A stretch of DNA of 34,024 nucleotides. Source: Candidatus Altiarchaeales archaeon. Lineage in GTDB: Archaea; Altiarchaeota; Altiarchaeia; IMC4; SCGC-AAA252-I15. The DNA lies in contig WJMO01000003.1 of assembly GCA_014727915.1 (NCBI GenBank), positions 1 through 34,024 of the forward strand, read 5' to 3'. Position numbers and translations under genes: made by a program. Below, piece after piece: positions 1,166-26,835 of the stretch (its first letter is position 1; each line of letters starts with the position of its first letter). Under the pieces are notes generated by a model. That model was not told the DNA's origin. It saw nothing but the letters and a program-made list of their open reading frames with translations, and made no database searches.

Positions 1166-1198
1166 TTAAAAAGGCTGTTTCATATAGATTAAACGGCC

Positions 1199-2143: not shown

Positions 2144-2149
2144 GTGAAA

Positions 2150-4507: not shown

Positions 4508-5065
4508 GTGGACGATAAGAACGTCAAGGGGATAGTGTTGGTCCTTGGAGCCTCCATACTGGCACTTTTGTACATAGGCTTCGACTCCGGCTTCGCCCCT
4601 TATGTCATAATAGCTGCTCTTTTACTGTTGATAGTCTCTGCGAAGAGGGATGCGATAGAGGAAAGGATAGAGCCTTCGAAGAAGAATGTTCAGAGGCCGG
4701 GGGAGGACAGCATGGAGAACCGCGAGAAGAAGCTTCTTATGTATTACCTCCTTGAGCTGCTGGACCATAAGAAGACCATTGACATGAAGGAGATCGCCAC
4801 AGACCTTGACATAAGCATATACACGCTCACTGACATCCTGAAGTTCATGAGCAAGCACGACATCATAAAGGTCATATATCCCCCGATGAGGAGTTTTCCC
4901 GTCATCAGGGTGGATGACAAGGAGAAGAGCGAGGCTTTCAGGGAGAAGCTATTCCTCGCCCTTGCGAAGAAGGACTTGCTGGGGAACCCCGTCAAGGAGG
5001 AGTTCAACAAGGAAGTCAAGGAGTATGTGGAGGGCATGAAGCGAAAGAGAGACATCCAGTCATAG
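4508..5065 (+). CDS. Hypothetical membrane protein, two N-terminal TM helices plus a putative winged-helix domain
   Basis: GTG start directly after the upstream stop; two hydrophobic segments; LLDHKKTIDMKEIATDLDISIYTLTDILKFMSKHDIIKV matches a wHTH pattern. Confidence 0.6.
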   Translation: MDDKNVKGIVLVLGASILALLYIGFDSGFAPYVIIAALLLLIVSAKRDAIEERIEPSKKNVQRPGEDSMENREKKLLMYYLLELLDHKKTIDMKEIATDLDISIYTLTDILKFMSKHDIIKVIYPPMRSFPVIRVDDKEKSEAFREKLFLALAKKDLLGNPVKEEFNKEVKEYVEGMKRKRDIQS

Positions 5066-8079: not shown

Positions 8080-8116
8080 TATTTATTGCACTGATAGAAT
8101 AATTAATCGACTGAAC

Positions 8117-10030: not shown

Positions 10031-10031
10031 C

Positions 10032-10898: not shown

Positions 10899-10919
10899 TG
10901 TTAGGTGAGGATAGATAAG

Positions 10920-12071
10920 ATGGCATCTCCAAGAGACCTAGTAAACCAGATGTCTAGGATGGTATCCCAGCTCGTCCGGGAGCTGATAGAGCTCATACTA
11001 TGGGCTGCGAAGATCATAATCTCCATCTTCATAGTATTCCTGAACATCATAATCACCACGGTCAAGCTGGTCATCCTCCACATACCGAAGCTCATAGCCC
11101 CCATGATACCCAAGAGGACGAGCAGCAGGCTTAACCAGCAGCTAATATACGCCGGGGTTGAGATGACCTCCGAGGAGGTGATAAGCATCACCCTGGTCTA
11201 CAGCGTTGTTGTGACCGTGATATCCTATCTCACTGCCGTGCTCTTGGAGGTCGCCCAGCCCATCCCATTGCTCGTTGTCACCGTCTCTTTCGCATCTGTC
11301 TGGGGGCTGCCGTTCATACTGTTGAACCTGCTGGCAAGCAGGAGGGCTGAGGCTGTGGAGACAGTATTGCCCGACGTGCTGAGCATGATAGGCCAGAACA
11401 TGAGCGCAGGGATGACATCCTCCAACGCCCTCTGGAGCGTCGCAAGGCCCGAGTTCGGACCGCTGGCAACAGAGATTCAGGATGTCGCCAAAGCCACCCT
11501 AACAGGAATACCTTTGACGGACGCTCTGGTGGGCATGACAAACCACATCAAATCCTCAAAGCTTTCCAGGAGCGTGAGGCTGATAATACAGGGGATGAAG
11601 TCAGGGGGGGACCTCCCAGCGGTCTTGCAAGCCATATCCCAGGACATGAGGAGGGAGTATAACCTGAAGAAGCAGATGGCGGCGGAGACCAACGCCCACG
11701 CGCTGTTCATACTGTTCGCGATAATGGTGGGGGCACCCCTTCTTTTCTCGGTCTCATACCAGTTCATCATGATATTCTCCACGATGATGGAAAAGCTCAA
11801 CATAGAGGAGCTGGGGAAGGAGGTCCCGCAGGGTAGCGGGATGATATCACTGAGCCCCCTGTCCATAACTCCAGAGTTCTTCCAGTTGTACGCTATTGGG
11901 ATACTCTTCATCTCCTCGGTTTCGGGCGCGCTGCTGGTGGGCATGCTAAGGACTGGCAACATAGTGTCGGGAGTCCCTAACATACCCGTTTTCGTGGTTA
12001 TCTCGATAGGGATGTTCATGCTCATGAAGTACGGGCTGGGCCTGTTCTTCTCACAGATAGTCACATTCTAG
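10920..12071 (+). CDS. Second type IV pilus membrane platform protein (T2SS-F/TadC-like)
   Basis: VETVLPDVLSMIGQNMSAGMT, FGPLATEI, SGGDLPAVLQAIS; multiple TM helices. Start is uncertain (GTG 10905 or ATG 10920). Confidence 0.9.
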   Translation: MASPRDLVNQMSRMVSQLVRELIELILWAAKIIISIFIVFLNIIITTVKLVILHIPKLIAPMIPKRTSSRLNQQLIYAGVEMTSEEVISITLVYSVVVTVISYLTAVLLEVAQPIPLLVVTVSFASVWGLPFILLNLLASRRAEAVETVLPDVLSMIGQNMSAGMTSSNALWSVARPEFGPLATEIQDVAKATLTGIPLTDALVGMTNHIKSSKLSRSVRLIIQGMKSGGDLPAVLQAISQDMRREYNLKKQMAAETNAHALFILFAIMVGAPLLFSVSYQFIMIFSTMMEKLNIEELGKEVPQGSGMISLSPLSITPEFFQLYAIGILFISSVSGALLVGMLRTGNIVSGVPNIPVFVVISIGMFMLMKYGLGLFFSQIVTF

Positions 12072-12796
12072 ATGCGGGAAAGGAGCGAACCCATCCTTTC
12101 AACCTCTTCGGGTGAGAGGGAATACTCTGATTTCGTGCGCAGTATGTGGTCGCATAGGCTGTCAAGGTCAACGACCTCTACTGAGGGGTTCTTCAACTCT
12201 ATCTCAGCGTCAGGGTTTGTGAAAACGAGCAGGCCATGCACCCATATGTGGGGGGCAGGGCCATTGAACACATCAGACTGGTGGGCGAGTATGTAGTCTT
12301 TCAAAACCTTGGAACTCCTCTTTACCTGGTTGCTGGGGCTGCCTATCTCAAGGTTGTAGGTGCTGCCGCCCCTTCCAACCTTTATCTTCTTCCATTCGTC
12401 TCCGTCGCAGGATATCCTGCCGCCATAGTTCTTGGCTTCCACCACGAATATCCCGTTCGGGCCGATCACCAGATAGTCTATGTCACCCCTGTTGGGAGGC
12501 ACAACCAACCCGCTTAGCAATATGTAACTGTCGCTCAAAGACCTTAAAACCTCTTTTACAGCCTCTTCCCCGAGAAAGCCCACGCGCCAGGCAAGATAGC
12601 TCTTGTAGGAGTATACTCCAAGCCCATAGGATATCGGGACTAGAAAAAGGCCTAAGCTCGAGTAGGGCACCTTGTTTAGTATGAACAGGGCGAGAGCGAG
12701 CATCAGCAGTAGCATGAAAAGGGCTATCCTGCTCTTGACAAGCTGTATGTTCTTCCAGACATACAGTGTTTTTCCGCTTGACGTTATGAGCCTCAT
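12068..12796 (-). CDS. Membrane-anchored NERD (PD-(D/E)xK nuclease-related) domain protein
   Basis: Two N-terminal TM helices, then GFLGEEAV...DIDYLVIGPNGIFVVEAKNYGG...SPSNQ, the NERD motif set. ATG at 12796 (MRLITSSG) preferred. Confidence 0.85.
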   Translation of the reverse strand: MRLITSSGKTLYVWKNIQLVKSRIALFMLLLMLALALFILNKVPYSSLGLFLVPISYGLGVYSYKSYLAWRVGFLGEEAVKEVLRSLSDSYILLSGLVVPPNRGDIDYLVIGPNGIFVVEAKNYGGRISCDGDEWKKIKVGRGGSTYNLEIGSPSNQVKRSSKVLKDYILAHQSDVFNGPAPHIWVHGLLVFTNPDAEIELKNPSVEVVDLDSLCDHILRTKSEYSLSPEEVERMGSLLSRI

Positions 12797-12897
12797 ATGC
12801 CCCCTACAAGTATTTATAAACACTCGTTTTTAATAATTCTGTAATATCGGGTTGGCTGACATTCTTAAAAAAATATTGAAAACTTGAGGTGAAAAAC
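12797..12897. promoter_or_regulatory. Divergent intergenic region with a palindromic TATA-like box and the pilin RBS
   Basis: AT-rich; TTTATAAA at 12813-12820; GAGGTGA just upstream of the pilin ATG at 12898. Confidence 0.55.
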
Positions 12898-13131
12898 ATG
12901 ATTGGAAGAAGAGGCCAAGGCGCCATGGAGTACCTTATGACCTACGGCTGGGCTATACTGGTCGTGATGATCGTGGGTATTGTCATGTGGCAGCTGGGCA
13001 TATTTAACATGGGCGGCACGACCGTGACAGCCACTGGTTTCGCGAAGATTAAGCCGCAGCTAGCAGGAACGGGACTGACGACCGCTGGAGTTTTTAAGAG
13101 CATATTTACCAACGGCGTCGGGACAACGATT
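12809..13131 (+). repeat. Diverged direct repeat, copy 1 (pilin promoter, leader and 5' coding region)
   Basis: Matches 25695..26004. Exact blocks: TTGAGGTGAAAAACATG (12884-12900 = 25757-25773) and a 27-nt block (12993-13019 = 25866-25892). Most other coding differences are at third codon positions. Confidence 0.85.
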
Positions 13132-13380
13132 ATAGTGCACAACGGAGGGAGCACGGAGCCATCCATAACGGACGGCACCACAGCCTGCACAAGCTTTACC
13201 GTGAACCCGGAAACCGTTTCCGCAGGGCAGAACTTCGTCTTGACTGCGAGTGGTTGCGCGACCGGTGAGCCAGGCGAGGTATACGACCTCACCGTATCGA
13301 TTCCCTACACGGTGTCGATAGGCACGACGTCTTCGTTCCACAGGGAGTCAGGAAGCATAAGAGGCCCGATGGAGCAGTAA
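12898..13380 (+). CDS. Archaeal type IV pilin 1 (candidate major pilin)
   Basis: MIGRRG|QGAMEYLMTYGWAILVVMIVGIVMW: class III signal peptide with Q+1 and E+5; own RBS and terminator. Confidence 0.92.
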   Translation: MIGRRGQGAMEYLMTYGWAILVVMIVGIVMWQLGIFNMGGTTVTATGFAKIKPQLAGTGLTTAGVFKSIFTNGVGTTIIVHNGGSTEPSITDGTTACTSFTVNPETVSAGQNFVLTASGCATGEPGEVYDLTVSIPYTVSIGTTSSFHRESGSIRGPMEQ

Positions 13381-13390
13381 ACCCGCTCCA

Positions 13391-13410
13391 TTTTTCTCTT
13401 TCTTTTTTTT
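13391..13410 (+). terminator. Oligo-T archaeal terminator after pilin 1
   Basis: TTTTTCTCTTTCTTTTTTTT begins 11 nt after the stop codon. Confidence 0.65.
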
Positions 13411-15235
13411 ATTTTCTTATCTGTTCAGCGTCTGACGTGTGCGACATGTAGGTGAGGTATTGCACGCCAGTGATGTTGTTCTCTAAGAGGTATTCTGTCG
13501 TCTTCTCACGCCAGGCCTCGCCTCCCCGGCCGCTTACGTATATATGAGAACCACGCTTGTGGTAGTATTCCAACACCTCTGGGAGGGTTAGTCCAGCATC
13601 CATGTAAGCAGCCACCAACCGAACCCTCTTATGGAGCTTGGGGTATGCGAAGTAAGGATACTCGCGGGTGAGGGAGTAGACAATAACTGAATCGTCGATT
13701 ATGTGCTCATCCAGTTCCAACGAGGTCTGCCATACCAGGTCCTTGTACAACCTTAATACCCTCAGATCGGCATAGGCTACGGAAGCAGAGTATGAGACGG
13801 ACAAGACCAGGAGGATGACCGTAAGTTGCCTCATCCTGGGCAGGTTCAACAGCGCAGCCGACGAGGCGATGAGGCCGACTGACAAGGCCGTGGGTATGAG
13901 CCTGGACGGGCCAACAGAGTATAGCCTATCTCCAGAGGCTAGCAGGTAGCCTGTGAAGGCAAGGAACAGGAAGGCATGGTATGCGAGCTCTCTCCTGCTC
14001 AAATAGCCTGCCAAGACGCTGATTGAATAGGCTGATAAAAGAGCTATGAATGGAAGGCAGTCTATGAAGTATCTTAGGCTGTAGGTCTCGTCTGCGCCGC
14101 CCCCGGATATCCTCAATGACAGTAGTATCTGAGCAAGTGAGAGAGCTGTGATGAACAGCATGGGCGCAACAGGAAACCTGCGTTTGACCATGAGATACGG
14201 CGCCAGAGCAGCGACTGTTATGAAGGGGGTGGACTGCAGTAGAGCCTTCTTGAAATCCCCCGTGTAGTCGGGAACATGCTTCATGTCGAAGAGCATGCCA
14301 TATGCGCGGGTCAAGGCCAGCCTGCCGGGGCTAAAGGATGAGATTGCCAGGATAGCCAACGCGGAGACAATCATCAAAAGCCTGAAATCCACATCCTCAA
14401 CTCTGAAATCGCGCCTGCGAAGTAGCTCGACGGCTGCGAAACATAGGGCAGACGCCAGGACACCAGCGGTAAGGTAGAAGTTAGCCTTTTCAGAGGGGTA
14501 GGAGGTCTCGAGGAAGCTTCCGAACATCTTTTGGTTTAGGTAACCCAGGAAAATAGCAGGCAGTATCATCCCTGCTATGAAGGGTTTGAAACTTCGGGGC
14601 ATGGCGAACCAGACGAAGAACATCTCGGCCATCAAGAAAACGCCGTTGGTGTAGCGGACCCCCACTGACATGAAGGAAAGGAAACCTGCGAGGAACACCA
14701 GACTGGCGGATGTTGAGCCCATGCAGTGCTCCCTTAGAAGAAGATATGCTGACGAGAGGACAAACAGTACGGATAGCATGTGAGGCCATAGCATCTGCGA
14801 GTATGCCAGTGTGAAGGTGAAAGCGTATAGTAGAGAGGAGAGGGCAGCCAACTCCCTGGAAAAGAGGAGGCATCCCATCCTGTAGAGCAGATAGACAGAA
14901 CAGCAGTATGCGATGACGTTCATGAGGTTCAAGCCATAGACGCCAAGAAGCAGATAGAATGGGGCGGCCATGAAAGTGTAAAAAGGTGCGGGTATCCCAT
15001 ACATCCTTATCTCAACCCCGTTGCTCACCAACTGCATGCCAGGCAACAAAAGCTCGGGGGTTTGCACCTCATCGAATCCGTTCCAAACATGCAATTCGCC
15101 CCTGTCCGCGAAAGAGGCCACCATCAGCAGATAGGTGGCCTCGTCCGTCACCCATATGCCCGGGGTCAGGGTAGCCACCAGGAATGCGAACAGGGACAGC
15201 ACAAAAGCCAGAACTAGGATGTCAACCCTTTCCAT
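13409..15235 (-). CDS. GT-C fold polytopic glycosyltransferase (PMT/ArnT-like)
   Basis: One TM helix followed by a loop with a DE motif (WVTDEATY); more than ten hydrophobic segments; RY motifs (GVRYTN, SLRYFI); soluble C-terminal domain. Confidence 0.75.
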   Translation of the reverse strand: MERVDILVLAFVLSLFAFLVATLTPGIWVTDEATYLLMVASFADRGELHVWNGFDEVQTPELLLPGMQLVSNGVEIRMYGIPAPFYTFMAAPFYLLLGVYGLNLMNVIAYCCSVYLLYRMGCLLFSRELAALSSLLYAFTFTLAYSQMLWPHMLSVLFVLSSAYLLLREHCMGSTSASLVFLAGFLSFMSVGVRYTNGVFLMAEMFFVWFAMPRSFKPFIAGMILPAIFLGYLNQKMFGSFLETSYPSEKANFYLTAGVLASALCFAAVELLRRRDFRVEDVDFRLLMIVSALAILAISSFSPGRLALTRAYGMLFDMKHVPDYTGDFKKALLQSTPFITVAALAPYLMVKRRFPVAPMLFITALSLAQILLSLRISGGGADETYSLRYFIDCLPFIALLSAYSISVLAGYLSRRELAYHAFLFLAFTGYLLASGDRLYSVGPSRLIPTALSVGLIASSAALLNLPRMRQLTVILLVLSVSYSASVAYADLRVLRLYKDLVWQTSLELDEHIIDDSVIVYSLTREYPYFAYPKLHKRVRLVAAYMDAGLTLPEVLEYYHKRGSHIYVSGRGGEAWREKTTEYLLENNITGVQYLTYMSHTSDAEQIRK

Positions 15236-16157
15236 CAGACCTTCCCTCCCTTACATATTCCCGCATAAGGTTCAAGCCAGCAACCGGGGAAAGCAGGAAA
15301 ACTGTGGAAACGGTGATAAAACGTTCTACGACGCCCACCAGCAAACCCTCGGCAAGTCCGTATCCCAGAAGCCCGGATGAGAAGCTGACCGCGAGCTCCT
15401 TGACTCCCAAACCGGCAGGAGTGAGGTTTATGAGCACGGAAAGCATGGAAACGATGGATATGAACACGCATGGAAGCAAGGCAACGTCGTAGCCAACGGA
15501 GTTGAATATCAGATAGAACCTGGCAACCACCAAGGCTGCAGTGAAGAGCTCAACACCCACCAAAGCCAGTAAGGTACGGTAGTCTCCGAATATGGCTGCA
15601 ACCCCGCTGAAGCTCCTGCCAACACGGCCGAGGACTGGATTGGAGGATTTGAAGGATGGTTTGAGCAGAGCCACGGAAACAGCAAACAGGCACAGAAGAC
15701 CGAAGAAACCTGCGAGTTCCAGGTTGAAAGAAGTCCCTGTTAACCCGATGTAAAGGACAGAGGAAAAGCCGAGAAGACCATACAATGAGAAGATCACGAG
15801 GTAGGTGGCTACCATGGTTGAAACGAATTTAGTGTAAGGAAAGCCATGTTTCTTCTTGAGATAGTAAGCCCTGAAGCCTGCCCCACCCCTGAAGGGGATA
15901 AGGTGATTGCCGACGGTCGTGAGTACTGCCAGGTTGAAAGACTCCCGAACTCCGAGTTGAACGTGGAAAACTCCCGTCAATACCTTTATCCGAAGGCCGT
16001 TGAAGAAAACACTCAGACACATCAGGAACAGGAGGGCTGGGAGATACGCCAGGTCGAAGTCGGGGACCTCTCTTAATCTTGCGAACAAGGCTGCCATAAC
16101 CGCCACGAGTACAGCCGTTAAGGCCAGCATCCAAGGCCATATCCTATCTGCCATCAT
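15222..16157 (-). CDS. UPF0104 / lysylphosphatidylglycerol-synthase-TM (flippase-like) membrane protein
   Basis: NHLIPFRGGAGFRAYYLKK and LTPAGLGVKE...ERFI motifs; polytopic. Confidence 0.8.
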   Translation of the reverse strand: MMADRIWPWMLALTAVLVAVMAALFARLREVPDFDLAYLPALLFLMCLSVFFNGLRIKVLTGVFHVQLGVRESFNLAVLTTVGNHLIPFRGGAGFRAYYLKKKHGFPYTKFVSTMVATYLVIFSLYGLLGFSSVLYIGLTGTSFNLELAGFFGLLCLFAVSVALLKPSFKSSNPVLGRVGRSFSGVAAIFGDYRTLLALVGVELFTAALVVARFYLIFNSVGYDVALLPCVFISIVSMLSVLINLTPAGLGVKELAVSFSSGLLGYGLAEGLLVGVVERFITVSTVFLLSPVAGLNLMREYVREGRSDGKG

Positions 16158-17676
16158 CGCATATCACCTTCCCATCCATGGACTCAGGGACTCGGCAGCC
16201 CATGAGGTCGAGTATAGTAGGAGCCACATCGGTTATCTCCAAACCGTGAATTTCCTGCATGCTCTCCACGCCCGCTCCGGACGCGATGAAAACACCATTA
16301 AGACGGTGGTTACCTGAAGTTTGAGTCTGAGGTTCGACAAAGAGCTTGTTTGAAACGAACGCGAACATCCCCGCCACCAGGTAGGAGAAGTCACGCATCG
16401 AATAGACCAGGTCAGGCATCCTATCCAAGTATTCGCCGGAGTAGAGTTCTTCCTTCCTCCATACCCGATCAACGAGCCTCTCCCCGCTTACAGGGTCTTC
16501 AAATCCCTCCAAATCACTTTGAAGGGATGATAGTAGCTGCTCATGGTCTCTGCCAGGCTCGACTATGCCCTTGGGCTGACGGCCTTTCAAGTTCGCGAAT
16601 ATCCCGCCGTATGAGCCGAAACTGTAGGCTCTGGTCTTCGACCAGTCGATGTCCTTGAAGGAGAAGGAGAAAAGGGAGATCAGTTTGTTGAAGACTTTGA
16701 AGTACTTGGCCTTCTTGGAGTGGCCGAACCGGCCCAGGCCGGCTTTAACAAGAGACAGGGGAGTTATGCCAGCCTTGAATAGGATCCTCTTGACAAACCC
16801 GACCCCCGAATCTTTCAGGGAAAGGTACCCCCTGTCACGGAGCCACTTGTTCAAAACAACGTTGTCCCTGCTGGGGCCACAGCCATGATCAGAGACCAAC
16901 AAAACCACAGCATCATCGGGCACGGACTTGATCAGCTCGCCGATCGCGTTGTCGACTCTAGAGTAAACCTCTTCAACGGCCGTCTCATACTCGGACCCGT
17001 CAGGCTCCATGGAACCGTCCATTTTTGAGTCCATGTACTTCCAATACCAGTGCTGGGCGTGGTCGACGCTCATGAAAGTCACCATCATGAAATCCCATTC
17101 CCGCTTTGAGAACAGGTATTTAGCAGTTTCCAGCTGTATGTCAACAAGCTCCAGAATATCCTCCAAAAAACGTTTCCTATCCTCCTCGCGGTCAGAATAC
17201 CTCGAATCCTCTATCAGCTTGAATCCTTTGATATTCTTCAGGAGCTCATCCTTAAGATTCAGAGGATGGGTGAAGTCGCTGTCCAATCCAGGGGTCATGA
17301 AACCCGAGACCATGAATCCGTTGACCTTCTGCGGCGGATAGGTGTAGGGGACGTTCACCACGCAACATGACCTGCCCTCGTCCGAGAGGTAATCCCATAT
17401 ACGCTTCACGGGGCCGCCGCCGTAGGAGTTTATCCTTATGTTATAGTCATCATCCAGGTGGTAGAAGTCGTATATTCCATGGGCGCCTGGATTCCTGCCG
17501 GTCAGCATGGAAGTCCACGCACATGGTGTGATGGGAGGTATGGTCGACTTCAGCTCGCCCCACATCCCAGAGTCCATCAGACCTGATATGTTCTTAAGCT
17601 TACCCTTGGCTGCCAGGGGTCGTATTATGTCGAATGTGGCACCGTCTATCCCAATGACCAAAACCCTGTATTTCAT
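16144..17676 (-). CDS. Alkaline-phosphatase-superfamily nucleotide pyrophosphatase/phosphodiesterase-like protein
   Basis: IGIDGAT, STIPPITPCAWTSMLTGRNPGAHG, DHAQH, VSDHG, GNHRLNG, DVAPTIL; no signal peptide. Confidence 0.88.
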   Translation of the reverse strand: MKYRVLVIGIDGATFDIIRPLAAKGKLKNISGLMDSGMWGELKSTIPPITPCAWTSMLTGRNPGAHGIYDFYHLDDDYNIRINSYGGGPVKRIWDYLSDEGRSCCVVNVPYTYPPQKVNGFMVSGFMTPGLDSDFTHPLNLKDELLKNIKGFKLIEDSRYSDREEDRKRFLEDILELVDIQLETAKYLFSKREWDFMMVTFMSVDHAQHWYWKYMDSKMDGSMEPDGSEYETAVEEVYSRVDNAIGELIKSVPDDAVVLLVSDHGCGPSRDNVVLNKWLRDRGYLSLKDSGVGFVKRILFKAGITPLSLVKAGLGRFGHSKKAKYFKVFNKLISLFSFSFKDIDWSKTRAYSFGSYGGIFANLKGRQPKGIVEPGRDHEQLLSSLQSDLEGFEDPVSGERLVDRVWRKEELYSGEYLDRMPDLVYSMRDFSYLVAGMFAFVSNKLFVEPQTQTSGNHRLNGVFIASGAGVESMQEIHGLEITDVAPTILDLMGCRVPESMDGKVICDDGR

Positions 17677-17679
17677 ATT

Positions 17680-18840
17680 TCAAACCAAAAAAGCACCATA
17701 TACCTTATGAGTCTCTGATGAAATGACATCCCATGTGAACCCTGAGAGGACTCTCTGCCTGGCATTCTCAGACAATCTGGCCAGTAGGGCATCGTCACCC
17801 AAAAGACGGTTTAACGCATCAGCCAATAGGTCGGGGCGCGCAGGCTCCACGAGCAGGCCGTTAACCCCGTCTTCAATCACGTCAGGCACTCCGTCTACGT
17901 TGGAGGCGACGACCGCTCTGCCGACGCTCATAGCCTCCAGCAAGACCAAGGGCATTCCCTCCGACAGTGAGGGAAGCACGAACACATCCGATGAAGCGAA
18001 GAGTGATGGGAGCTCCCTAACATCCCTGAAACCGAGGAATCTGACATTATCCGCGACACCTGCCCTAAGGGCCTGGCCTTCCAGTTCACCCCGTAACGGG
18101 CCATCGCCCACGACGGTTAACTCTACATCGGGGTATGATTCCTTCACCTTCTTCAAGGCCTCGATAAGGTACTTATGACCCTTCTTATCAACAAGCACGC
18201 CTGCAGTTATAATCCTGCGTCCATGAGCTTCTCGGCCCGCATGACAGAAGAGTTCAGGGTCCACGCCGTTGGGTATGAAATGGACCTTAGAACCGTCAAC
18301 GCCCAATTTCTCAAGCCTATCCATCATGCGGGTGTTGACCGCTATGACCGCATCACAGCCATTCAGAACCCAACTACCAATCGAGGCCATGAATCCCGAT
18401 TCGGGCAGGGTGTTAATGTCAAAGCCCTGAAGCGTCAGGACAACGGGCCTGCGCCTGGCTTTCTTAACCAGTACAGCGAGAAAGCCTGACAAAAGCCAGT
18501 GAGCATGCAATATGTCGCATTTACGTGAATGCTTGAAGGCGGAGATCAGATAGGACAGGAGGAAGAATGGCATTTGGAGCATCCCGGACAGTGTCTTAAC
18601 ATTGTACTGTAAACCTCGGTCGTAGGCGACCGAATGCCAAGACTTGAGGGGCATATACTGGAACCTTCGAACTAGAACACCTTCCAAATCCTCGACTGTG
18701 CGAGTATCCCTTCCGTGGGGTGCAAGAACCGAAACGTCCAAACCCCTCATATTCAGTTTTTTGGAGAGGGAGTGGACGAAATTTCCGGCATAGTCGCCAA
18801 CCTCCCGGGGATATGAAGTGGATAGCATCAATACCTTCAT
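17680..18840 (-). CDS. GT4 (GT-B) glycosyltransferase
   Basis: HAHW, IPNGVD, KKG, GDGPLR and FVLPSLSEGMPLVLLEAM (ExxxxxxxE). Confidence 0.95.
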   Translation of the reverse strand: MKVLMLSTSYPREVGDYAGNFVHSLSKKLNMRGLDVSVLAPHGRDTRTVEDLEGVLVRRFQYMPLKSWHSVAYDRGLQYNVKTLSGMLQMPFFLLSYLISAFKHSRKCDILHAHWLLSGFLAVLVKKARRRPVVLTLQGFDINTLPESGFMASIGSWVLNGCDAVIAVNTRMMDRLEKLGVDGSKVHFIPNGVDPELFCHAGREAHGRRIITAGVLVDKKGHKYLIEALKKVKESYPDVELTVVGDGPLRGELEGQALRAGVADNVRFLGFRDVRELPSLFASSDVFVLPSLSEGMPLVLLEAMSVGRAVVASNVDGVPDVIEDGVNGLLVEPARPDLLADALNRLLGDDALLARLSENARQRVLSGFTWDVISSETHKVYGAFLV

Positions 18841-19769
18841 TTTCTGGCGGACTCCATGTCGAATAACATGGCGAAAAATAGCGACTGCAATCCTGTTATT
18901 ATCAAAAACATAGGTAAGAACGCGCTGGAAGCCGTTATAGCGCCCACCTTTATCCTAACAAAAAGCATGTAGAAACCTGTAAGAATGCCAAGAGGCAGTA
19001 GTGTTAGACCGAGGAAGTAGAAGAACACAAGAGGATGGAGAGCCTTTAGAACATACTTTTCCTTTAGCCTCCAGAAGAATCCTCGGAAGAGAAGCCATGA
19101 GACTGACGGGATATAGTTCCATAGTCTTATCTTGGACTTCTCCTCGCCATATATTGGAGGCATAACAACGTCTATTACCCTGAGATTGTATGTGTTCATC
19201 TTTATCAGCATGTCATTGGGGTATCCATATCGGGGATATATCGTGTCCAAGGGCAGGGTCTCCAGGACATCCGAGGTTAAGGCTGTGAACCCATTCTGGG
19301 GATCCATTATATCCCAGTATCCAGAGGACACTTTGGTTAGGAGTGTGAGGATTGAATTTCCGAAAAGTCGCAGCAGGGGCATATTCGACCTGGCCTTGGT
19401 GCTCATCAGACGGTTGCCTTTGGCATAGTCGGCCTTTCCGTCAACGAGAGGGTCCAAAAGCTTGGATAATTGGATTGGGTCCATCTGGTTGTCTCCGGCC
19501 ATGACGACTACAAGTTCATATCCCGAATCCAGAGAAGCCCTATATCCAGAGAGTATCGCAGACCCGACACCCTGGTTCCCCTCATGTGATATTATTGTCA
19601 GATTGGGTAGATTCAACTTTTCCGCTTCATCCACAGTACCGTCCGTGCTTCCATCATCAACGAGAAATATCCGGTCAACATAGTCTGGTATTCGGGTCAA
19701 AGTCGTCGAAATTAGGTCCTGCTCGTTATATGCTGGGACGACAACAGCTAGCGACTTATCACGGTACAT
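18837..19769 (-). CDS. GT2 glycosyltransferase, polyprenol-phosphate sugar synthase-like, with two C-terminal TM helices
   Basis: VVVPAYNE, VDDGSTDGT, NQGVG, MAGDNQMDP, DPQNGF; hydrophobic C-terminal pair. Confidence 0.92.
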   Translation of the reverse strand: MYRDKSLAVVVPAYNEQDLISTTLTRIPDYVDRIFLVDDGSTDGTVDEAEKLNLPNLTIISHEGNQGVGSAILSGYRASLDSGYELVVVMAGDNQMDPIQLSKLLDPLVDGKADYAKGNRLMSTKARSNMPLLRLFGNSILTLLTKVSSGYWDIMDPQNGFTALTSDVLETLPLDTIYPRYGYPNDMLIKMNTYNLRVIDVVMPPIYGEEKSKIRLWNYIPSVSWLLFRGFFWRLKEKYVLKALHPLVFFYFLGLTLLPLGILTGFYMLFVRIKVGAITASSAFLPMFLIITGLQSLFFAMLFDMESARK

Positions 19770-19835
19770 GAAAACACCTGGAATCCTAAATCCTTTGACA
19801 TTAATAATTATAAGCGAGAATATATACTGTTTTAT

Positions 19836-20744
19836 ATGAGTATAAGCAGGTTAGAGTGGAAACACTTTTTTTCCCTGTTAAAGGTACTGATACTATTGCT
19901 CACAGTACGTTATCTTATACAATATGCCTTAGATTATGACATACCCAAGCTCATAAACCAGTCATCGGCGGAATATCTGGCTGTGGCATTCACACTGTTG
20001 CTTGTGAATTACTTTCTTCAGATTAGGCTGCTTATGATATTCTCCAGGGGAAAGCTGACTTTCATGGACTCGTTCTATGTTGAATTCTACACGATGCTGA
20101 TGAACACTAGCATAATGTCTTCATTTTTCTCCGTTCAGAAGATAGCCTTCCTTAACCAGAGGATAAAGAACCTGAGGGAGTCCATGCAGTTGTTCATAAA
20201 ACCGATGGCATTCGGGGTATGCATAAGGATGGCATTCATATTGGTCTCAGGCGTGGGGGCATACCAGGGTATTGCTGCTGCCATTATAGCGTCCGCAGGA
20301 TTGGCAGGTTTTTTCTTGATTATGGTATATGGCCCGAAGAGGAGGTATGTCGAGAGGGTCACGGGCCTTCCCGCAAAAAAAACCATCCAGGTGGGAGCCA
20401 TCATATCATCCGAGATAAGTCTGATATCAATAGCTTTCTTCTGCATTCTGGCTTCGCTGACTGACAGCGATTTGCATGTGTTTAATGTGGTCTTTTCTGA
20501 GGGTGTTGGGTATATGTCAGGGTTTTTCTCTCCGCTGCCATCAGGGCTGGGAGTCAGAGAGTTCGTACTGACCGAGCTTAATTCGGTGATGGGCATCTCG
20601 AAGGAAGTTGCATTTGCCGCAGCCATACTATACAGGTTCGTAATATTTGCCGATCAGGTATTAGCAGGTGTTTTACTGATCCTTTCGACAAAAGCATTTA
20701 AAAGACTAAGGAAGCCGGGCGTTAAGGGGATGGTTAGGTCTTAA
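19836..20744 (+). CDS. Second UPF0104 flippase-like membrane protein (divergent, AT-rich)
   Basis: PLPSGLGVREFVL...AAAILYRF motif; polytopic. Confidence 0.75.
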   Translation: MSISRLEWKHFFSLLKVLILLLTVRYLIQYALDYDIPKLINQSSAEYLAVAFTLLLVNYFLQIRLLMIFSRGKLTFMDSFYVEFYTMLMNTSIMSSFFSVQKIAFLNQRIKNLRESMQLFIKPMAFGVCIRMAFILVSGVGAYQGIAAAIIASAGLAGFFLIMVYGPKRRYVERVTGLPAKKTIQVGAIISSEISLISIAFFCILASLTDSDLHVFNVVFSEGVGYMSGFFSPLPSGLGVREFVLTELNSVMGISKEVAFAAAILYRFVIFADQVLAGVLLILSTKAFKRLRKPGVKGMVRS

Positions 20745-20777
20745 AATCGACAGGGGGTGAGACCAGAGATAACACCA

Positions 20778-21545
20778 CTATCTCAAGTAGAGTTTATCGG
20801 CCAGTTTCTTCCCATCCCTCAACGAGCAGTATAGGGGGTTTGAACTCAAGTATCCGTCCATGACATCCGCGTAATCCAAAAGAAGTTTTGAGAATAGAAC
20901 ATGGTAGGCGTCACCATTTGCTGTGTAATGGAAGGGGTGGAGAGAGACTTGGATGGTGTTTTCCCTTGCGCCCTTCACGAACTCATAGGGGTCCTTACCA
21001 TGGAAGCACATATGCGTATCTGATAGGTACAGGTCATCGGAGAAAATTCTATCATCATATGCATTTCGGTAACCATCGAAGAGGGGGTATTCACCGCCCA
21101 CGGACGGATTATGGAGGCTGACAGAAGTGGGTCTTTCACCTGTTATGGACTCCAGAAGTCCGGCTTCATAGTCCAGCTTCTCCGCCAAGGCCTGATTATC
21201 GTGTCCAGGGTATTGGGAGGGGTCAAAATGTACGCCTACCTCAAAGCCGGCACTTGAGATTTCACGGATTATGCTCTGGTTCTCTGAGGAGAGTGCGTTG
21301 TAAAGGGGACAATTCACCATTATGAAGAAAGAGGATGTGACATTGCATTCCCTTTCAATGAGGAATAGTCTACGGGCAGAGCGCATATTAAAGTCAACAT
21401 CATGCCTGAGGACGATGGCATTGTTCCCATCCCATCCGTCCAGGGATGTTACCTCAGATGTGTTTTTCATGTGTTCTATGAAATCGCGCAGTTTTTCGTA
21501 TTTGAAAAAATCAGCGAGGCCGCCATTCCCATGCGGTTCAGCCAT
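20778..21545 (-). CDS. Polysaccharide-deacetylase-like (NodB/CE4 fold, WbmS-like) protein
   Basis: LRHDVD, FEVGVHFD, SLHNP, YLSD and SLHPFHY motifs. Confidence 0.7.
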   Translation of the reverse strand: MAEPHGNGGLADFFKYEKLRDFIEHMKNTSEVTSLDGWDGNNAIVLRHDVDFNMRSARRLFLIERECNVTSSFFIMVNCPLYNALSSENQSIIREISSAGFEVGVHFDPSQYPGHDNQALAEKLDYEAGLLESITGERPTSVSLHNPSVGGEYPLFDGYRNAYDDRIFSDDLYLSDTHMCFHGKDPYEFVKGARENTIQVSLHPFHYTANGDAYHVLFSKLLLDYADVMDGYLSSNPLYCSLRDGKKLADKLYLR

Positions 21546-21608
21546 TATTGACTATTTTATTATCTGTTAATAAAGTCGGGGAATAGTATGTCCCGCAATA
21601 CATGTGAT

Positions 21609-22577
21609 TCATAGCCGCGTGTGAAGCTCCCCGAACATGCCTGTGTCAAGGTAGAATGTCTTCCAGTAATCACAGTTGCTGCATGGGCTCTCGTCCGATA
21701 TCCGGGAATTCATGTGTTTCTCACGAATAGCAGAGTATCTTTTGCTCTTCCATAGCTTGGATATGGAATCCCGGTTAACATCGCCCATGGCTTCTTTCCT
21801 ATCCCAGTCGTGGTTGCATATCGCAACCTCTCCGTTCCAGTATATGACAATGTCGGTTATCACCTTGGGGCAGGGAAAGCGGCATGGGAACACCGGGACT
21901 TCGGACTGGTCAACGCCGCCGCCGAAGCCTCCATTCTTGGAATGTTCCTTGTATATCCGGACACGATCGACCTTTGATGTCCAAAAATCGACGAAATCTC
22001 CGACATCATCCTTTGTGACCTCTGTTTCAACTAGTGAAACCTGTGTTTCTGGCAATGAAAGGCCAAGTTCCTCCCTGCGCTGACTAAAGTAGAGTATGTT
22101 GGACATGACTTTTTTGTATTCTGCCCCTTTTCGTTGCCTCGCATAGTTTTCCTCTGACGAGGCATCTATGCTGAAGGATATGAACTTAATCCCGGTTCCA
22201 AGTATGAAATCCGACATTTCCCTGTCGAGCAGTGTGGCATTTGTCGCAAGGCTTATGTCCTTCAAGCCATTACCAGCAGCATATTGTAGTATGCGTTTGA
22301 AGTCTGGGTGTAGTAGGGACTCCCCTCTGAAGAATAGCACAACCTTTGTGCTAATGTCCTCGGACAGTATCTCATCCATTATTTTACGGTATAAACCGAA
22401 GTCAAGGTAACCCCTTTCAGATGCCATGCTTTTCCTAGGGCACATGCTACAATTGAGGTTGCATTCATTGGTCAGTTCGACAGTAACCCTATCAGGAAAC
22501 CGAGAGAGTTTTGGGTCCCTGTCGAATTCCCTGAATCTATCAGTCCAGTATTCGACCTTCTCGCTGTCAAGATTCAT
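21609..22577 (-). CDS. Radical SAM protein with SPASM/twitch auxiliary-cluster domain
   Basis: CNLNCSMC (CxxxCxxC), GESLLHP, TNATLL, SIDA; C-terminal C...NGEVAIC...D...GDV...LW...CSNC. Confidence 0.92.
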   Translation of the reverse strand: MNLDSEKVEYWTDRFREFDRDPKLSRFPDRVTVELTNECNLNCSMCPRKSMASERGYLDFGLYRKIMDEILSEDISTKVVLFFRGESLLHPDFKRILQYAAGNGLKDISLATNATLLDREMSDFILGTGIKFISFSIDASSEENYARQRKGAEYKKVMSNILYFSQRREELGLSLPETQVSLVETEVTKDDVGDFVDFWTSKVDRVRIYKEHSKNGGFGGGVDQSEVPVFPCRFPCPKVITDIVIYWNGEVAICNHDWDRKEAMGDVNRDSISKLWKSKRYSAIREKHMNSRISDESPCSNCDYWKTFYLDTGMFGELHTRL

Positions 22578-23679
22578 CTTCTACTGCACCAACCAATGCC
22601 TCCACAACCGTTCTCTGGTCTCCCTCAGACAGTCCGAGATGGAGGGGGAGCGAGACACTGTTCCGGAAAAGACGCTCAGAGTTGCTAAGAGATGACCTGG
22701 AAGGAGCATCCTTGAAGAATGGCTGTAGGTGAAGCGCATAGGTCCCTATTTGAAGCTCTATCCCCTCTTTCCTCAGCCTTCTTATGACCTTGTCCCGGAT
22801 ACCATCTATACCGAGGAGTATGCAGTAGGTCTGGTAAGTATGGCGCACTTTACCTGTGGAGGAGGGGACTGAACACCAATCCAACCCATCCAGTAGTCCA
22901 TCATAGGTTCTCGCCATCCTTATGCGCTCTGATATCATGTCCTCGACCTTCTTCATCTGTTCAACGCCTATGGCGGATAATACGTCGCTCAGCTTATAGT
23001 TAACGCCCAAATGCCTGAACTCTGTTGTGAATCCATCGCCTGAAGGCCTGCCTCCGAACCTCTTGTAAAGCCTTGCCTTATCTGCGATATCATCGTTTTC
23101 TGTTACTAGCATGCCACCTTCCCCGGTGGTTATAAGTTTCCGGGGGTGGAAGCTGAAACATGTAACATCCGCGAAACAGCCTACTTTTCTGCCTTTAATT
23201 TCAGCTCCAAGCGAGCACGCAGCATCCTCGACCACGGACAGTTCATTCTCAGATGCGAGATCATACACCTCGGGGTCTATCGGATTGCCGAATAGCGAGA
23301 CCGGCAGGATGCATTTGGTGCTTCCTGTCAGGGAAGACCTTGCTGAGGCAACATCGATATTGTACGATTCAAGGTTGACATCAACCAGGACAGGGTCAGC
23401 ACCGACTATCCGAACAGCATCCGCAGTAGCGGGATAGGTGTAGTCTGGGACAACAACCTCGTCTCCAGGTCCGACACCCAAAGCCCTCAGCGCAACCTCC
23501 AATGCTGAAGTGCATGAGGTGAAAGCTATCCCATGACCGACACCCACATAAGAGGCTACCCTTGCCTCGAATTCCCTGGTTACCTCTCCTTCGGTCAGGT
23601 AGCCGGAATCCAGGACTTTTTTAACAGCCTTGTATTCAGCATCTCCCAGCGAAGGACCTGCTAACGATATTTTTCTCAT
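22567..23679 (-). CDS. DegT/DnrJ/EryC1/StrS PLP-dependent sugar aminotransferase
   Basis: TSCTSALE, VEDAACSLG, FSFHPRKLITTGEGGM (PLP lysine), GVNYKLSD. ATG at 23679 (MRKISLAG), just after the asnB-like stop, preferred over 23766. Confidence 0.95.
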   Translation of the reverse strand: MRKISLAGPSLGDAEYKAVKKVLDSGYLTEGEVTREFEARVASYVGVGHGIAFTSCTSALEVALRALGVGPGDEVVVPDYTYPATADAVRIVGADPVLVDVNLESYNIDVASARSSLTGSTKCILPVSLFGNPIDPEVYDLASENELSVVEDAACSLGAEIKGRKVGCFADVTCFSFHPRKLITTGEGGMLVTENDDIADKARLYKRFGGRPSGDGFTTEFRHLGVNYKLSDVLSAIGVEQMKKVEDMISERIRMARTYDGLLDGLDWCSVPSSTGKVRHTYQTYCILLGIDGIRDKVIRRLRKEGIELQIGTYALHLQPFFKDAPSRSSLSNSERLFRNSVSLPLHLGLSEGDQRTVVEALVGAVEDES

Positions 23680-23680
23680 A

Positions 23681-25582
23681 TTACTTGACCTTTGGCTTCC
23701 TAGGATCCCCCACAATGTACATGTTATACCATATCTCTGCGGCATAAAGGCTCCATATGAGGTCATAGTGCAGCCTTAGACGCGGGTTGGGGACCTCACC
23801 CAGTATCTTATCAAAGTATTCCTTCTTTATGAGCTTGTCGGATACTAGGCTTCCGTCTGGAAGAGCCTGCTTGGCCAGGTCTCTCAACTCACGTATGTAG
23901 GTGTCCATAGTGTTAGAAGCAAACCCCCTTTTCTCCTTCATGAGTACCTTTTTGGGTATTATGTCCTTAACTGCCTTGCGCAGTATGCTCTTCCCATTAG
24001 GGTCTGCGAGCTTTATTTCCGCAGGCATCTGGAATGACAGCTCAAGAAGGTCGTTTTCTAGGAAGGGGACTCGCGACTCCACGGAATTAGCGTTGGACAT
24101 GCGGTCATCCACAAGGAGGAAGTCATCAGGCAGCTTGACCATGAAGTCTGCCTTGAACACTTTGTCTATAAAAGTCCCCCTGCCGGAAAAGTACTTTTCA
24201 TATTCCAAGCGGACGGGATTAAGCTCTTTGGACATAAGCTTGCTCCCATATATCTTACAGAGATATTCGTCATTTAAAACCCGGTCGAGAGTCTGTGTGA
24301 TTAGGTATTGGTCTGTGTTATCTCCCAGGTAACGCACGGAATCCAGGTAATCTAGCTCGTCATCGTCAACTAGGCTCCCATACTTGGTTTGGAACTTAAT
24401 AAGCTTTTCGGCCGCCCTAGCGACCGCAGACCTTTCACGGGGGGTTATCCTGGACCTGATCCTATCTATCTTTGCAACATAGTTGTATTTGAATATGTAG
24501 CCTGCGAAGACTTCATCTCCGCCTATGCCACCTAGGACACACTTCACCTTCTTTGAGGCTAGTTCGTAGAGGTAGTATGGGTAGAGGTTCCTTTTGGGCT
24601 CGTCAGCGTACCATATCATCTTGGGGTACTCCTTGATCAGATCCTCCTCCTTTACAAGCTCGTGATGGTTTGTGCCGTATTCCTCAGCGACCAGCCGGGC
24701 ATCCTCGACCTCGTCTTCCGGATTGCCGAAACCCATGCTAAATGTGTTGATGTTTTCACTGGTGTTTCTGCTTGCTAAGGCGACTATCGTCGTGGAGTCA
24801 ATGCCGCCTGAAAGGCATATCCCAAAGGGGACGTCACAGACCATATGGCGCCTAACAGATTCCTCGAGTATTTTCCGAGTGCGTTTCACATAATATGACT
24901 CAGTATGGCTATCACCCCCCAGGGTAGGACTCCAATATCTGAGAGATTTTATGCTCCCATCCTCCCAGACCATCAGATTACCAGGTAGAAGGCGCTTAAC
25001 GCCCTTGAACATTGTGTTCTCTCCGGGAACGTATCTCAGGTTGATATAGTAGTGGAATGAGCGCATATCAACTTCCCGCCTCAACCCAGGATGTTGTAGA
25101 AGAGACTTGATTTCGGAAGCGAATAAAAAAGTTCCGCCAACCCAGGCATAATGAAGGGGCTTTATCCCGGACCGGTCCCTCGCCATAAGCAGCCGCTCAT
25201 CCCGAGAGTCCCAGAGGGCAAATGCGAACATTCCGTCGAACATTCGGACACATTCGTCCCCGTATTCCTCGTAGGCATGGACTATGACTTCCGTGTCAGA
25301 GTTGGATTTGAACGAATGACCCTTGGATTCCAGAGTTTCCCTCAACTGCATGAAATTGACTATCTCGCCGTTGTAGGAAACCCATATGTCGCCCTCCTCG
25401 TTGCACAATGGCTGATTCGCAGACGGGGACAGGTCTATTATGCTTAACCTGGTGTGGCCCAAACCAACATCTTTGTCCAAGTAGATGCCCTTGTTGTCAG
25501 GGCCCCTATGGGAGATAACAGAGGACATATCCTTAAGCAGCTTACGGTCGCCAGACCCGACAAAACCACACACTCCACACAT
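23681..25582 (-). CDS. asnB: Asparagine synthase (glutamine-hydrolysing) family amidotransferase, probably sugar-amidating
   Basis: N-terminal MCGVCG (Cys2 nucleophile), HRGPD, RLSIIDL, NGEI, LSGGIDS, GGDEVFAGY, ESRVPFL; located in a glycan cluster. Confidence 0.9.
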   Translation of the reverse strand: MCGVCGFVGSGDRKLLKDMSSVISHRGPDNKGIYLDKDVGLGHTRLSIIDLSPSANQPLCNEEGDIWVSYNGEIVNFMQLRETLESKGHSFKSNSDTEVIVHAYEEYGDECVRMFDGMFAFALWDSRDERLLMARDRSGIKPLHYAWVGGTFLFASEIKSLLQHPGLRREVDMRSFHYYINLRYVPGENTMFKGVKRLLPGNLMVWEDGSIKSLRYWSPTLGGDSHTESYYVKRTRKILEESVRRHMVCDVPFGICLSGGIDSTTIVALASRNTSENINTFSMGFGNPEDEVEDARLVAEEYGTNHHELVKEEDLIKEYPKMIWYADEPKRNLYPYYLYELASKKVKCVLGGIGGDEVFAGYIFKYNYVAKIDRIRSRITPRERSAVARAAEKLIKFQTKYGSLVDDDELDYLDSVRYLGDNTDQYLITQTLDRVLNDEYLCKIYGSKLMSKELNPVRLEYEKYFSGRGTFIDKVFKADFMVKLPDDFLLVDDRMSNANSVESRVPFLENDLLELSFQMPAEIKLADPNGKSILRKAVKDIIPKKVLMKEKRGFASNTMDTYIRELRDLAKQALPDGSLVSDKLIKKEYFDKILGEVPNPRLRLHYDLIWSLYAAEIWYNMYIVGDPRKPKVK

Positions 25583-25694
25583 CCTAGAGATTAATGAATT
25601 TTAGGATTAAAATAACCAGGTTCCGCATATGGCTCCTCGAATAAGTTATAACGCCCAAACACTGCATTTATTCGACATAATCCACGATTAAACG

Positions 25695-26004
25695 AGTATT
25701 TAAATAACCTGATTTAATATCTTATAACTGGTTGGTTGATTTTCTCGTATGAAAAATTGAGGTGAAAAACATGTTCGGAAGAAGAGGACAGGGTGCTATG
25801 GAGTACCTTATGACATATGGCTGGGCCATACTTGTGGTCATGGTCGTTGGGATTGCAATGTGGCGGCTGGGCATATTTAACATGGGCGGCACAACAGTGA
25901 CATCCACTGGATTCGCCAAGATAAAGCCGCAGCTGGCAGGAACCGGGATTGACACGGCAGGCACGTTCAAGGGCATATTCACGAACGGCGTCGGCACGAC
26001 GATA
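25695..26004 (+). repeat. Diverged direct repeat, copy 2 (pilin promoter, leader and 5' coding region)
   Basis: Homologous to 12809..13131; TATA-like TTTAAATA at 25699-25706. Confidence 0.85.
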
Positions 26005-26304
26005 ACCATAAGGGGCGTGAGTGTCTCAAGCTCCACCGGCGCAACGTGTCCTGGAGATCAGTGCGCAACAGCCAACAGCGATGTGACCCAGGCAGAGATG
26101 GCCGGGGCAGGGCAGGACATATCCGCAGGAGAGAACTTCTACATCGAGCTGATCTGCGGCGGCGTAGGAGCCTGCGGTAACATCGGCGGCGATAGAGGGG
26201 AAGTGTATGATGTGACGGTCGGCATCACCTACGATGTGTCAATAGGAACGTCATCACCACTCCAGCACACTGAGTCAGGAACCATTAGAGGCCCCTACGA
26301 GTAA
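25771..26304 (+). CDS. Archaeal type IV pilin 2 (paralog of pilin 1)
   Basis: MFGRRG|QGAMEYLMTYGWAIL; 69 of the first 78 residues identical to pilin 1 by manual alignment. Confidence 0.92.
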   Translation: MFGRRGQGAMEYLMTYGWAILVVMVVGIAMWRLGIFNMGGTTVTSTGFAKIKPQLAGTGIDTAGTFKGIFTNGVGTTITIRGVSVSSSTGATCPGDQCATANSDVTQAEMAGAGQDISAGENFYIELICGGVGACGNIGGDRGEVYDVTVGITYDVSIGTSSPLQHTESGTIRGPYE

Positions 26305-26361: not shown

Positions 26362-26835
26362 ATGAGAGCTGTCAGAGGCCAGAACGCCATCGAGTACATG
26401 ATGACCTACGGGTGGGCCATACTCGTCATACTCATAGTAGGGGTTCTCGTGTGGCAGATGGGGATCCTCGAGTTGGGGAGGAACGTCACACCTGACAAGA
26501 GGGGCTTCAGCCAGATAACACCGTTGGACTGGGTGATGAAAAATAACGGGGACATGGAGATAGTCGTCCAGAACAACGCAGGCACCATCCTTAGGATAGA
26601 CCAGATAGGCGCCAACATGCTGGCAGGAGGCAGTGCCTGCTCGCCGTCAGCGCCGCCGGGGACTTTCCCTATAGAAGACTTCCGGCCCGCAGCATCCGAG
26701 ACATTGACATTCTCATGCATGTTGAACGCGGAACAGGGAGAATACTACAAGGTTAACATGACCATAACTTACACTAACCCCTCTTCCGGACTTCAGCACA
26801 TGAGCAATGGAGTAGTGTGGGGGCCGGTAGGCTAG
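26362..26835 (+). CDS. Archaeal type IV pilin 3 (more divergent, probably minor)
   Basis: MRAVRG|QNAIEYMMTYGWAILVILIVGVLVW; C-terminal GVVWGP parallels IRGP of pilins 1 and 2. Confidence 0.9.
   Translation: MRAVRGQNAIEYMMTYGWAILVILIVGVLVWQMGILELGRNVTPDKRGFSQITPLDWVMKNNGDMEIVVQNNAGTILRIDQIGANMLAGGSACSPSAPPGTFPIEDFRPAASETLTFSCMLNAEQGEYYKVNMTITYTNPSSGLQHMSNGVVWGPVG

Follow-up and report, generated by a model that had tools for sequence, protein, structure and literature searches.

The window analysed here is an entire 34-kb contig (WJMO01000003.1, 34,024 nucleotides) of a Candidatus Altiarchaeales archaeon, the genome of which (GCA_014727915.1) measures 1.81 Mb and is 90.6% complete. It has a type IV pilin gene facing a gene for a GT-C glycosyltransferase, a good candidate for an archaeal pilin O-glycosyltransferase. 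In order, the contig carries type IV pilus genes, a NERD gene, pilin 1, ten genes, pilin 2, pilin 3 and hisS. Exactly ten open reading frames (ORFs) separate pilin 1 from pilin 2. The initial annotation described these as glycan-type genes, one of which, the GT-C, converges on pilin 1, and the analysis confirmed this.

Pilin 1 (12898-13380, plus strand) is the likely major type IV pilin. Its ATG start is preceded by a GAGGTGA ribosome site; it has a class III signal (RRG/QGAMEY) and 154 mature residues. Pilin 2 (25771-26304, plus strand, ATG start) is PilA-like and has 171 mature residues. Both lack N-x-S/T sequons, and the serine plus threonine counts reported for them earlier, 36/154 and 32/171, were reproduced. 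Pilin 3 (26362-26835, plus strand) is of a distinct type and has two sequons (NVT and NMT); the large minor pilin, of 458 residues, has 11. Pilins 1 and 2 share the start context GAGGTGAAAAACATG (12885-12900 and 25758-25773) and have T-rich tracts behind them; pilin 3 has neither. These sequence features are consistent with a division into major and minor subunits.

The GT-C gene (13409-15235, minus strand, 608 residues) ends 28 bp from pilin 1, and its product has D31/E32, H152, R194 and R388/Y389 as invariant residues. Four more genes lie beyond it on the same strand. The first encodes flippase-like protein 1 (15222-16157), a predicted flippase which scores over the cut-offs of both LPG_synthase_TM (PF03706) and TIGR00374. 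Next are an AlkP-superfamily phosphodiesterase/nucleotide pyrophosphatase (Phosphodiest; 16144-17676), cytoplasmic, with no transmembrane helix or signal, and a GT4 glycosyltransferase (17680-18840), part of a semi-conserved core. The fourth is a GT2 with two C-terminal transmembrane helices (18837-19769), likely a polyprenyl-phosphate sugar synthase (AglJ/PpgS-like, under the cut-offs). Flippase-like protein 2, a second LPG_synthase_TM (PF03706) protein, is on the plus strand (19836-20744). The minus strand then carries a polysaccharide-deacetylase-like protein (20778-21545), which has no Pfam match and is named, as a lead only, after an Atlas look-alike cluster (TM score 0.84); a radical SAM/SPASM enzyme (21609-22577); a DegT/DnrJ sugar aminotransferase (22567-23679, likely start 23679); and an AsnB-like glutamine amidotransferase (23681-25582; TIGR01536, over the cut-off), likely for sugar amidation. 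AsnB has four further full-length paralogues elsewhere in the genome. The cassette does not appear to be self-contained, because the Pfam scan points to no dehydrogenase or dehydratase in it to feed DegT. GC content at third codon positions (GC3) is 0.51-0.60 in the genes from GT2 to AsnB, compared with a median of 0.72 in 848 long ORFs, which possibly include spurious frames.

Family matches and a structure model identify the product of 13409-15235 as a GT-C and not an AglB. The identification draws on PMT_2 matches in relatives, the invariant D31-E32 pair and a model of pLDDT 91 that matches GT-C structures. The protein itself has no match in a Pfam scan, including none to PMT (PF02366) or TPR. 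PMT_2 is found in 11 of 35 family members and PMT in two, with a best E of 2.4e-5. An alignment of the 35 has D31, E32, R194, R388 and Y389 invariant; across a wider set of 97 homologues, D31, Q334 and R388 never vary and E32 is kept in 90. A WWD motif occurs in 0/35 and 0/97, so the WWDYG of AglB is missing from the family. PDB sequence searches with family profiles returned nothing significant (best TMEM260, E 0.42). A fold of the single sequence (pLDDT 41) was discarded as unusable; the model built from 46 sequences has a pLDDT of 90.9 and a pTM of 0.92. Residues 516-594 are modelled as alternating strands and helices, which form a C-terminal alpha/beta domain. At E<=0.001 Foldseek gave 27 matches, GT-Cs without exception, with AglB ranked first. 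The top VIA match is Pmt4 (Z 25.6, root mean square deviation (rmsd) 4.2, 345 aligned), followed by Pmt1/2 (24.2), ALG12 (24.1), ArnT (24.0), yeast STT3 (23.9) and AglB (23.4). TfpW, TfpO and AglS are absent from the fold matches listed, which does not exclude kinship with them.

At E<=1e-25, members of the GT-C family occur in 15 of the class's 61 genomes; searching with the single protein at 1e-10 gives 16. In eleven genomes the GT-C gene converges on a PilA-type gene: G000 (this genome), G051, G036-G041, G050, G008 and G009. They represent five genera and two families, and GT-C identity among them is 27-48%; the link to pilins holds in relatives. In G050 only the C-terminal 260 residues of the GT-C are assembled. 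The number of genes between the GT-C and the next pilin is 0 (G037, G039 and G009:C116), 3 (G036), 4 (G051), 8 (G038) or 9 (this genome). At the three loci with no intervening gene the GT-C stands alone between pilins, with no other glycan gene. Among the other 10 linked loci, GT2 is present at 7, GT4 at 7, a flippase-like protein (type 1 or 2) at 6, DegT at 2 and a radical SAM match at 1; AlkP, deacetylase and AsnB are present at none. For G040, G041, G009 and G050 these tallies join two contigs by inference, and the G008 locus is truncated. In place of such genes, other loci encode methyl- and acyltransferases, an epimerase or a B12 radical SAM enzyme. At E<1e-100, GT2 has matches in 6/61 genomes, every one GT-C-linked; G008 adds a 52% fragment. 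The conserved unit is thus pilin plus GT-C, and the tailoring genes are a swappable insert; the proposal that all ten genes form one conserved pathway is not upheld. G009 apparently repeats the unit: pilin, GT-C and pilin come first, and the adjoining contig has another GT-C together with GT2 (L047, L155/L030; C116, C59), the junction of the contigs being inferred.

GT-C linkage coincides with a property of the pilins. Pilin matches were obtained in 56/61 genomes and loci were fetched for most; 118 complete pilins were recovered from 48 genomes, many of them incomplete, after removal of sequences that were partial, contained X, or were under 120 or over 230 residues. A canonical main pilin, recognised by one fixed pattern at the N terminus without reference to the head domain, was available for 43 genomes. 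It is sequon-free in 10/11 GT-C-linked genomes and in 1/32 unlinked genomes; within the window's family the figures are 9/9 and 1/8, and a looser pilin pattern gives 18/21 linked and 3/50 unlinked. The 12 linked pilins contain 1 sequon where 16.1 are expected (0/5000 shuffles are as low), and the 38 unlinked pilins contain 74, compared with 57.2 expected from shuffling. The initial annotation had asked whether GT-C presence tracks sequon-free pilins across related genomes, and it does. Within the window the same trait is at chance level: shuffling leaves pilin 1 and pilin 2 sequon-free with P = 0.21 and 0.30, so their lack of sequons, taken as a signal at first, shows nothing alone and was rejected as evidence.

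The depletion is specific. Pilin-3 types, which serve as a control, retain sequons in 6/6 linked genomes. Loss of AglB was ruled out as the cause, as AglB is present in 10/11 linked genomes (that of G038 is missed at E<=1e-12). The window has no AglB, as was noted at the outset; the genome nevertheless encodes one at C6:85471-88377, with WWDYG at residue 667. G007, G032, G033 and G034 have only GT-C paralogues of non-PilA type, and their canonical pilin retains sequons; the G033 contig ends right behind its pilin. The single unlinked genome with a sequon-free main pilin, G043, carries at this locus a GT-C-like protein of another kind, a tandem fusion (L094:2715-6110; 1131 residues, about 17 transmembrane helices). 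Its N-terminal half is weakly related to the GT-C family (E 2.5e-16), and the fusion may be an independent replacement enzyme. The C-terminal half is 28% identical to a 641-residue protein flanking the G026 main pilin. A GT2-like match in G043 has two TGA stops.

Gene identities, layout, the fold and motifs of the GT-C, its conserved adjacency and the specific sequon depletion despite AglB are all shown by the analysis, and together they make it reasonably probable that the GT-C is a pilin-dedicated, AglB-independent glycosyltransferase with a TfpW-like action on major pilins, probably O-linked to Ser/Thr. The glycan, its acceptor and the linkage are predictions. Ser/Thr is favoured as the site on the precedent of known pilin-linked GT-Cs and PMTs, which act on these residues, and not because of pilin composition. 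GT2 would load a nucleotide sugar onto dolichol phosphate, and GT4 may extend it. DegT, AsnB, the radical SAM enzyme, the deacetylase and AlkP would tailor the sugar, as an exchangeable strain-level module that would also need enzymes encoded elsewhere. A PF03706 protein would flip the lipid-linked donor. Before the filament assembles, the GT-C, with D31 as base, would then transfer a sugar or short glycan outside the membrane to pilin 1 and, probably, also to pilin 2. Once the major pilins had such a coat, they would lose their N-x-S/T sequons, and pilin 3 and the minor pilin would remain AglB substrates. The GT-C likely replaces AglB-dependent N-glycosylation of the major pilins. Pilin 1 is the proposed acceptor, pilin 2 is likely a second one, and pilin 3 is likely an AglB substrate and an internal control. 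The AglB independence put forward in the initial annotation agrees with a GT-C that has no WWDYG and with the retention of sequons in AglB substrates such as pilin 3.

A number of observations weigh against this reading. The first concern ancestry. In a species tree of EF-2 and RpoB from 30 genomes, 27 of them with both traits, GT-C linkage changes three times and sequon loss four. There are 2 independent pairs on well-supported (starred) branches and 3 on all branches; they point in the same direction, with a sign test p of 0.5. The association rests on about three independent evolutionary events, and with so few independent pairs Fisher values overstate it. The pilin tree likewise requires three changes. 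Two further tree results are on the side of the reading. Placement of the linked pilins in one clade is rejected by the approximately unbiased (AU) test (p 0.031; a weak test on 152 columns), and with it a single horizontally moved block of pilin and GT-C as the explanation for everything. PilA-locus GT-Cs group in IQ-TREE (9/10 at 94/98, with G008 outside), and all 11 PilA-locus rows of a 77-row FastTree fall inside a 22-member clade at 0.969.

Exceptions also count against the reading. The G008 pilin and one G009 pilin beside a GT-C each bear a sequon; pilins with sequons also lie close to GT-C-like genes, unrelated ones, in G026 and G034; and a GT2 orthologue was not found in G037 or G039. 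The GT-C family is wide, with 753 clusters at E<=1e-30, and four more full-length paralogues are encoded in the same genome. None of the four adjoins a type IV pilin and two adjoin a VirB2/TrbC-like pilin; the five VirB2-like pilins checked beside paralogues are Ser/Thr-poor (0.06-0.12). The fold is ambiguous: Pmt1/2, ALG12, ArnT, STT3 and AglB, at 10-12% identity, all score no more than about 2 Z units below Pmt4, and the Foldseek order, with AglB first and not Pmt4, differs from that of VIA. The closeness of the scores for PMT, ALG12, ArnT and AglB means that the fold does not tell the acceptor. The structural comparison with PMT and AglB suggested in the initial annotation thus supports a GT-C fold and does not single out an acceptor class (Z 23.4-25.6).

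These points bear on an alternative in which a lipid, or a glycan of another pathway, receives a side sugar from the GT-C, which would act like ArnT, Gtr or AglS; the pilin locus would then be a hotspot for surface-glycan islands, and sequon loss would be coincidental through a few shared ancestries. This is unlikely, although the small number of events (about 3) and the near equality of the ArnT and ALG12 Z scores with those of PMT speak for it. GT2, flippase and GT-C together have the layout of bacterial three-component glycan-modifying systems, as described in the available part of PMC11127046. GT4 and flippase 1 weakly match, under the cut-offs, models of glucosaminyl-phosphatidylglycerol synthase and flippase, and the low GC3 marks the genes from GT2 to AsnB as a recent insert. 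However, the constant neighbour of the pilin is the GT-C and not an island, and three loci have no other glycan gene. An AglS-like enzyme branching pilin N-glycans would need sequons, and it fits poorly because the neighbouring pilins have lost these sites. The depletion, moreover, affects PilA types alone, and those solely where a genome has the PilA-linked clade. Likeness to the three-component (GtrA/B/X type) systems extends to GT2, flippase-like protein and GT-C at about half of the loci (compare PMC11127046, seen in part), and to ArnT by fold. The trio is present here, its flippase being predicted, and absent at G037 and G039. It differs from those systems in that the flippase is PF03706, not GtrA or MATE, and the invariant partner is a pilin gene rather than a polysaccharide locus.

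A second alternative keeps the pilin as acceptor: a general enzyme encoded elsewhere would prime pilin Ser/Thr, and the linked GT-C would only extend or cap this with the cassette sugar. The genome has many other GT-C-like genes, the glycan extenders ALG12, ALG9 and ALG3 match the model at Z about 20-24, and G037 and G039 are without a GT2 orthologue, all of which would suit such a division of labour. It is nevertheless improbable. No priming enzyme that tracks the trait was identified, though no systematic search was made, and in the bacterial precedent loss of TfpW removes even single sugars (the portion of 10.1101/2020.04.19.049825 at hand).

Composition of the pilins gives no help to O-glycosylation. 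The Ser/Thr share is 0.182 in the 12 linked main pilins and 0.198 in the 38 others (p = 0.23), and no acceptor motif specific to linked pilins and no specifically gained residue emerged from comparison of linked with unlinked pilins. Head domains are 28% Ser/Thr in pilin 1 and 22% in pilin 2. According to the part of PMC7347861 available, heads of O-glycosylated Sulfolobales pili have about 37% Ser/Thr and others about 20%, and about 20% is also the share where archaeal filaments show hardly any O-glycan density or none. The linked pilins are thus unlike the Sulfolobales pili and show no enrichment; these results also weigh against the preferred reading. Ser/Thr richness, offered at first as a sign of O-glycosylation, was dropped as evidence, as about 20% is ordinary by that account, and a linked-pilin acceptor motif was rejected as a candidate.

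The same figures raise the option that the GT-C acts on the pilin itself but through a different residue, namely Tyr, Cys or a non-sequon Asn. Linked pilins keep a normal Asn content (5.3% compared with 5.6%) and gain no Ser/Thr, and the C-terminal alpha/beta domain aligns along AglB/STT3. Haloferax, furthermore, has an AglB-independent N-glycosylation for which the oligosaccharyltransferase is unidentified, as stated in the consulted part of PMC8241124. This option is again quite improbable: the conserved Asn, Tyr and Cys positions are common to unlinked pilins, and the DE motif is PMT-like as far as the excerpted PMC12331936 describes it, though common to GT-Cs.

Known systems allow the preferred reading, a pilin-dedicated GT-C, to be placed. 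In P. aeruginosa group IV strains, tfpW lies directly downstream of pilA and encodes a GT-C, with D-arabinofuranose O-glycans as the modification (10.1101/2020.04.19.049825, in part). TfpW is likened here by position and enzyme class, from its description, and TfpO by gene position. In both TfpW and the archaeal system the GT-C gene is immediately downstream of the major pilin, an arrangement kept in 11 genomes here in convergent form. Both enzymes have about 610-650 residues, multiple transmembrane helices, an extracytoplasmic C-terminal domain and an acidic motif in the first external loop, as far as the accessible description of TfpW goes. In contrast, the pilin here is an archaeal class III pilin, and the GT-C gene is convergent on it. 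By the model and Pfam, the C-terminal domain is a small alpha/beta domain and not TPR. The donor genes share the locus and suggest amino or amido hexoses rather than arabinose, and the archaeal GT-C coexists with AglB.

Protein O-mannosyltransferases (PMTs; PF02366/PF13231) are alike in the DE motif after the first transmembrane helix and the conserved Arg/Tyr in a late external loop (PMC12331936, partial text), in being the best VIA matches (Pmt4 and Pmt1/2), and in the PMT_2 and PMT matches of family members. They differ in identity (10-12%), in the absence of a PMT Pfam match to the query and in its extra C-terminal alpha/beta domain. The enzyme also has RY instead of Rx2Y and no second invariant Asp in loop 2, and a plain mannose donor is unlikely here. 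AglB/STT3 share the GT-C fold, aligned nearly full length (Z 23.4, rmsd 4.3, 424 aligned), and provide the first Foldseek match; they are set apart by the missing WWD, by the true AglB elsewhere in the genome and by neighbouring pilins without sequons. The LA_3751/LA_3752 family of putative glycosyltransferases (NF047440) matches the N-terminal 240 residues (E 1.2e-15) and is an Atlas structural neighbour (TM score 0.65), but the match, at 57.3 bits, falls short of the cut-off of 200. A literature search for these names yielded no paper.

PMT-domain proteins have been noted in archaea, where O-mannosylation was then undescribed (PMC4973528, in the part available). O-glycosylation is seen on archaeal S-layers and some pili, with enzymes unidentified according to the portion consulted of a 2018 review (PMC6098224); a 2024 paper, again as available in part, calls the Sulfolobus O-glycosyltransferase 'currently elusive' (PMC11607397). 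The main text of a 2026 survey of archaeal type IV filaments contains neither 'Altiarchae' nor 'glycosylation' (PMC13705601). Literature searches, which mostly did not cover subscription journals, found no paper naming such an archaeal enzyme, this locus or the family. Judged by sequence, the locus is a real, well-conserved pilin/GT-C unit with a variable donor cassette. With a defined candidate enzyme, D31 as its proposed catalytic residue, pilin 1 as a small proposed acceptor and pilin 3 as an internal negative control, it makes the question of archaeal O-glycosylation testable by co-expression. The trade-off between N-sequons and GT-C can also be used as a sequence signal for finding further such enzymes.

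A wider proposal is more tentative, and somewhat doubtful as a whole. The GT-C subfamily would consist of archaeal protein O-oligosaccharyltransferases specialised on the major pilin, and Altiarchaeota lineages would have changed repeatedly between pilins N-glycosylated by AglB and sequon-purged pilins O-glycosylated by the GT-C. The hypervariable cassette would provide a strain-specific coat, plausibly against pilus-binding viruses, and a sister clade would serve VirB2-like pili. The defence role is speculation by analogy with 10.1101/150227. A search of a phage collection gave no match, and a search of RNA runs listed none as containing the locus.

The closest GT-C homologues are labelled Candidatus Altiarchaeota. 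A distant branch of the wider family is probably bacterial, to judge by homologue labels, Atlas neighbours and amino-acid bias. Sister clades occur near VirB2/TrbC-like type IV secretion system (T4SS) pilin genes in several Altiarchaeota (G000:C3:77071-81722 (L007/L008), L045, L048, L049, L051, L050 and L055), and their GT-Cs often stand among other GT-C-like genes. Near the VirB2/TrbC-like locus in this genome is a probable PrgI-like gene. Small pilin genes that look by eye like the VirB2 type also form a run directly adjoining aglB (G000:C6:83780-88377).

Pilus assembly genes occupy 6703-12071 on the plus strand and encode the 458-residue minor pilin, an ATPase and two TadB/TadC-type platform proteins; the prepilin peptidase gene is located on a different contig. 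Between them and pilin 1, on the minus strand, is the gene for a membrane-anchored NERD-domain (nuclease-related) protein (12068-12823). Across the order, most loci seen have it next to the main pilin, and in most relatives seen it is a conserved marker upstream of that pilin; this conserved adjacency suggests that the pilus may have a role in DNA uptake. The stretch 83-5065, with genes for a MoxR AAA ATPase and an FG-GAP/TPR membrane protein and with neighbouring genes, also lies upstream of the pil genes of G051, G040 and G039. Beyond the pilins, on the minus strand (28141-30243), is the gene for a secreted protein of 700 residues, in which a domain is repeated and Thr/Ser form two long tracts (143 Ser+Thr). 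It is kept in G051 and G040, and is a natural candidate substrate for general O-glycosylation.

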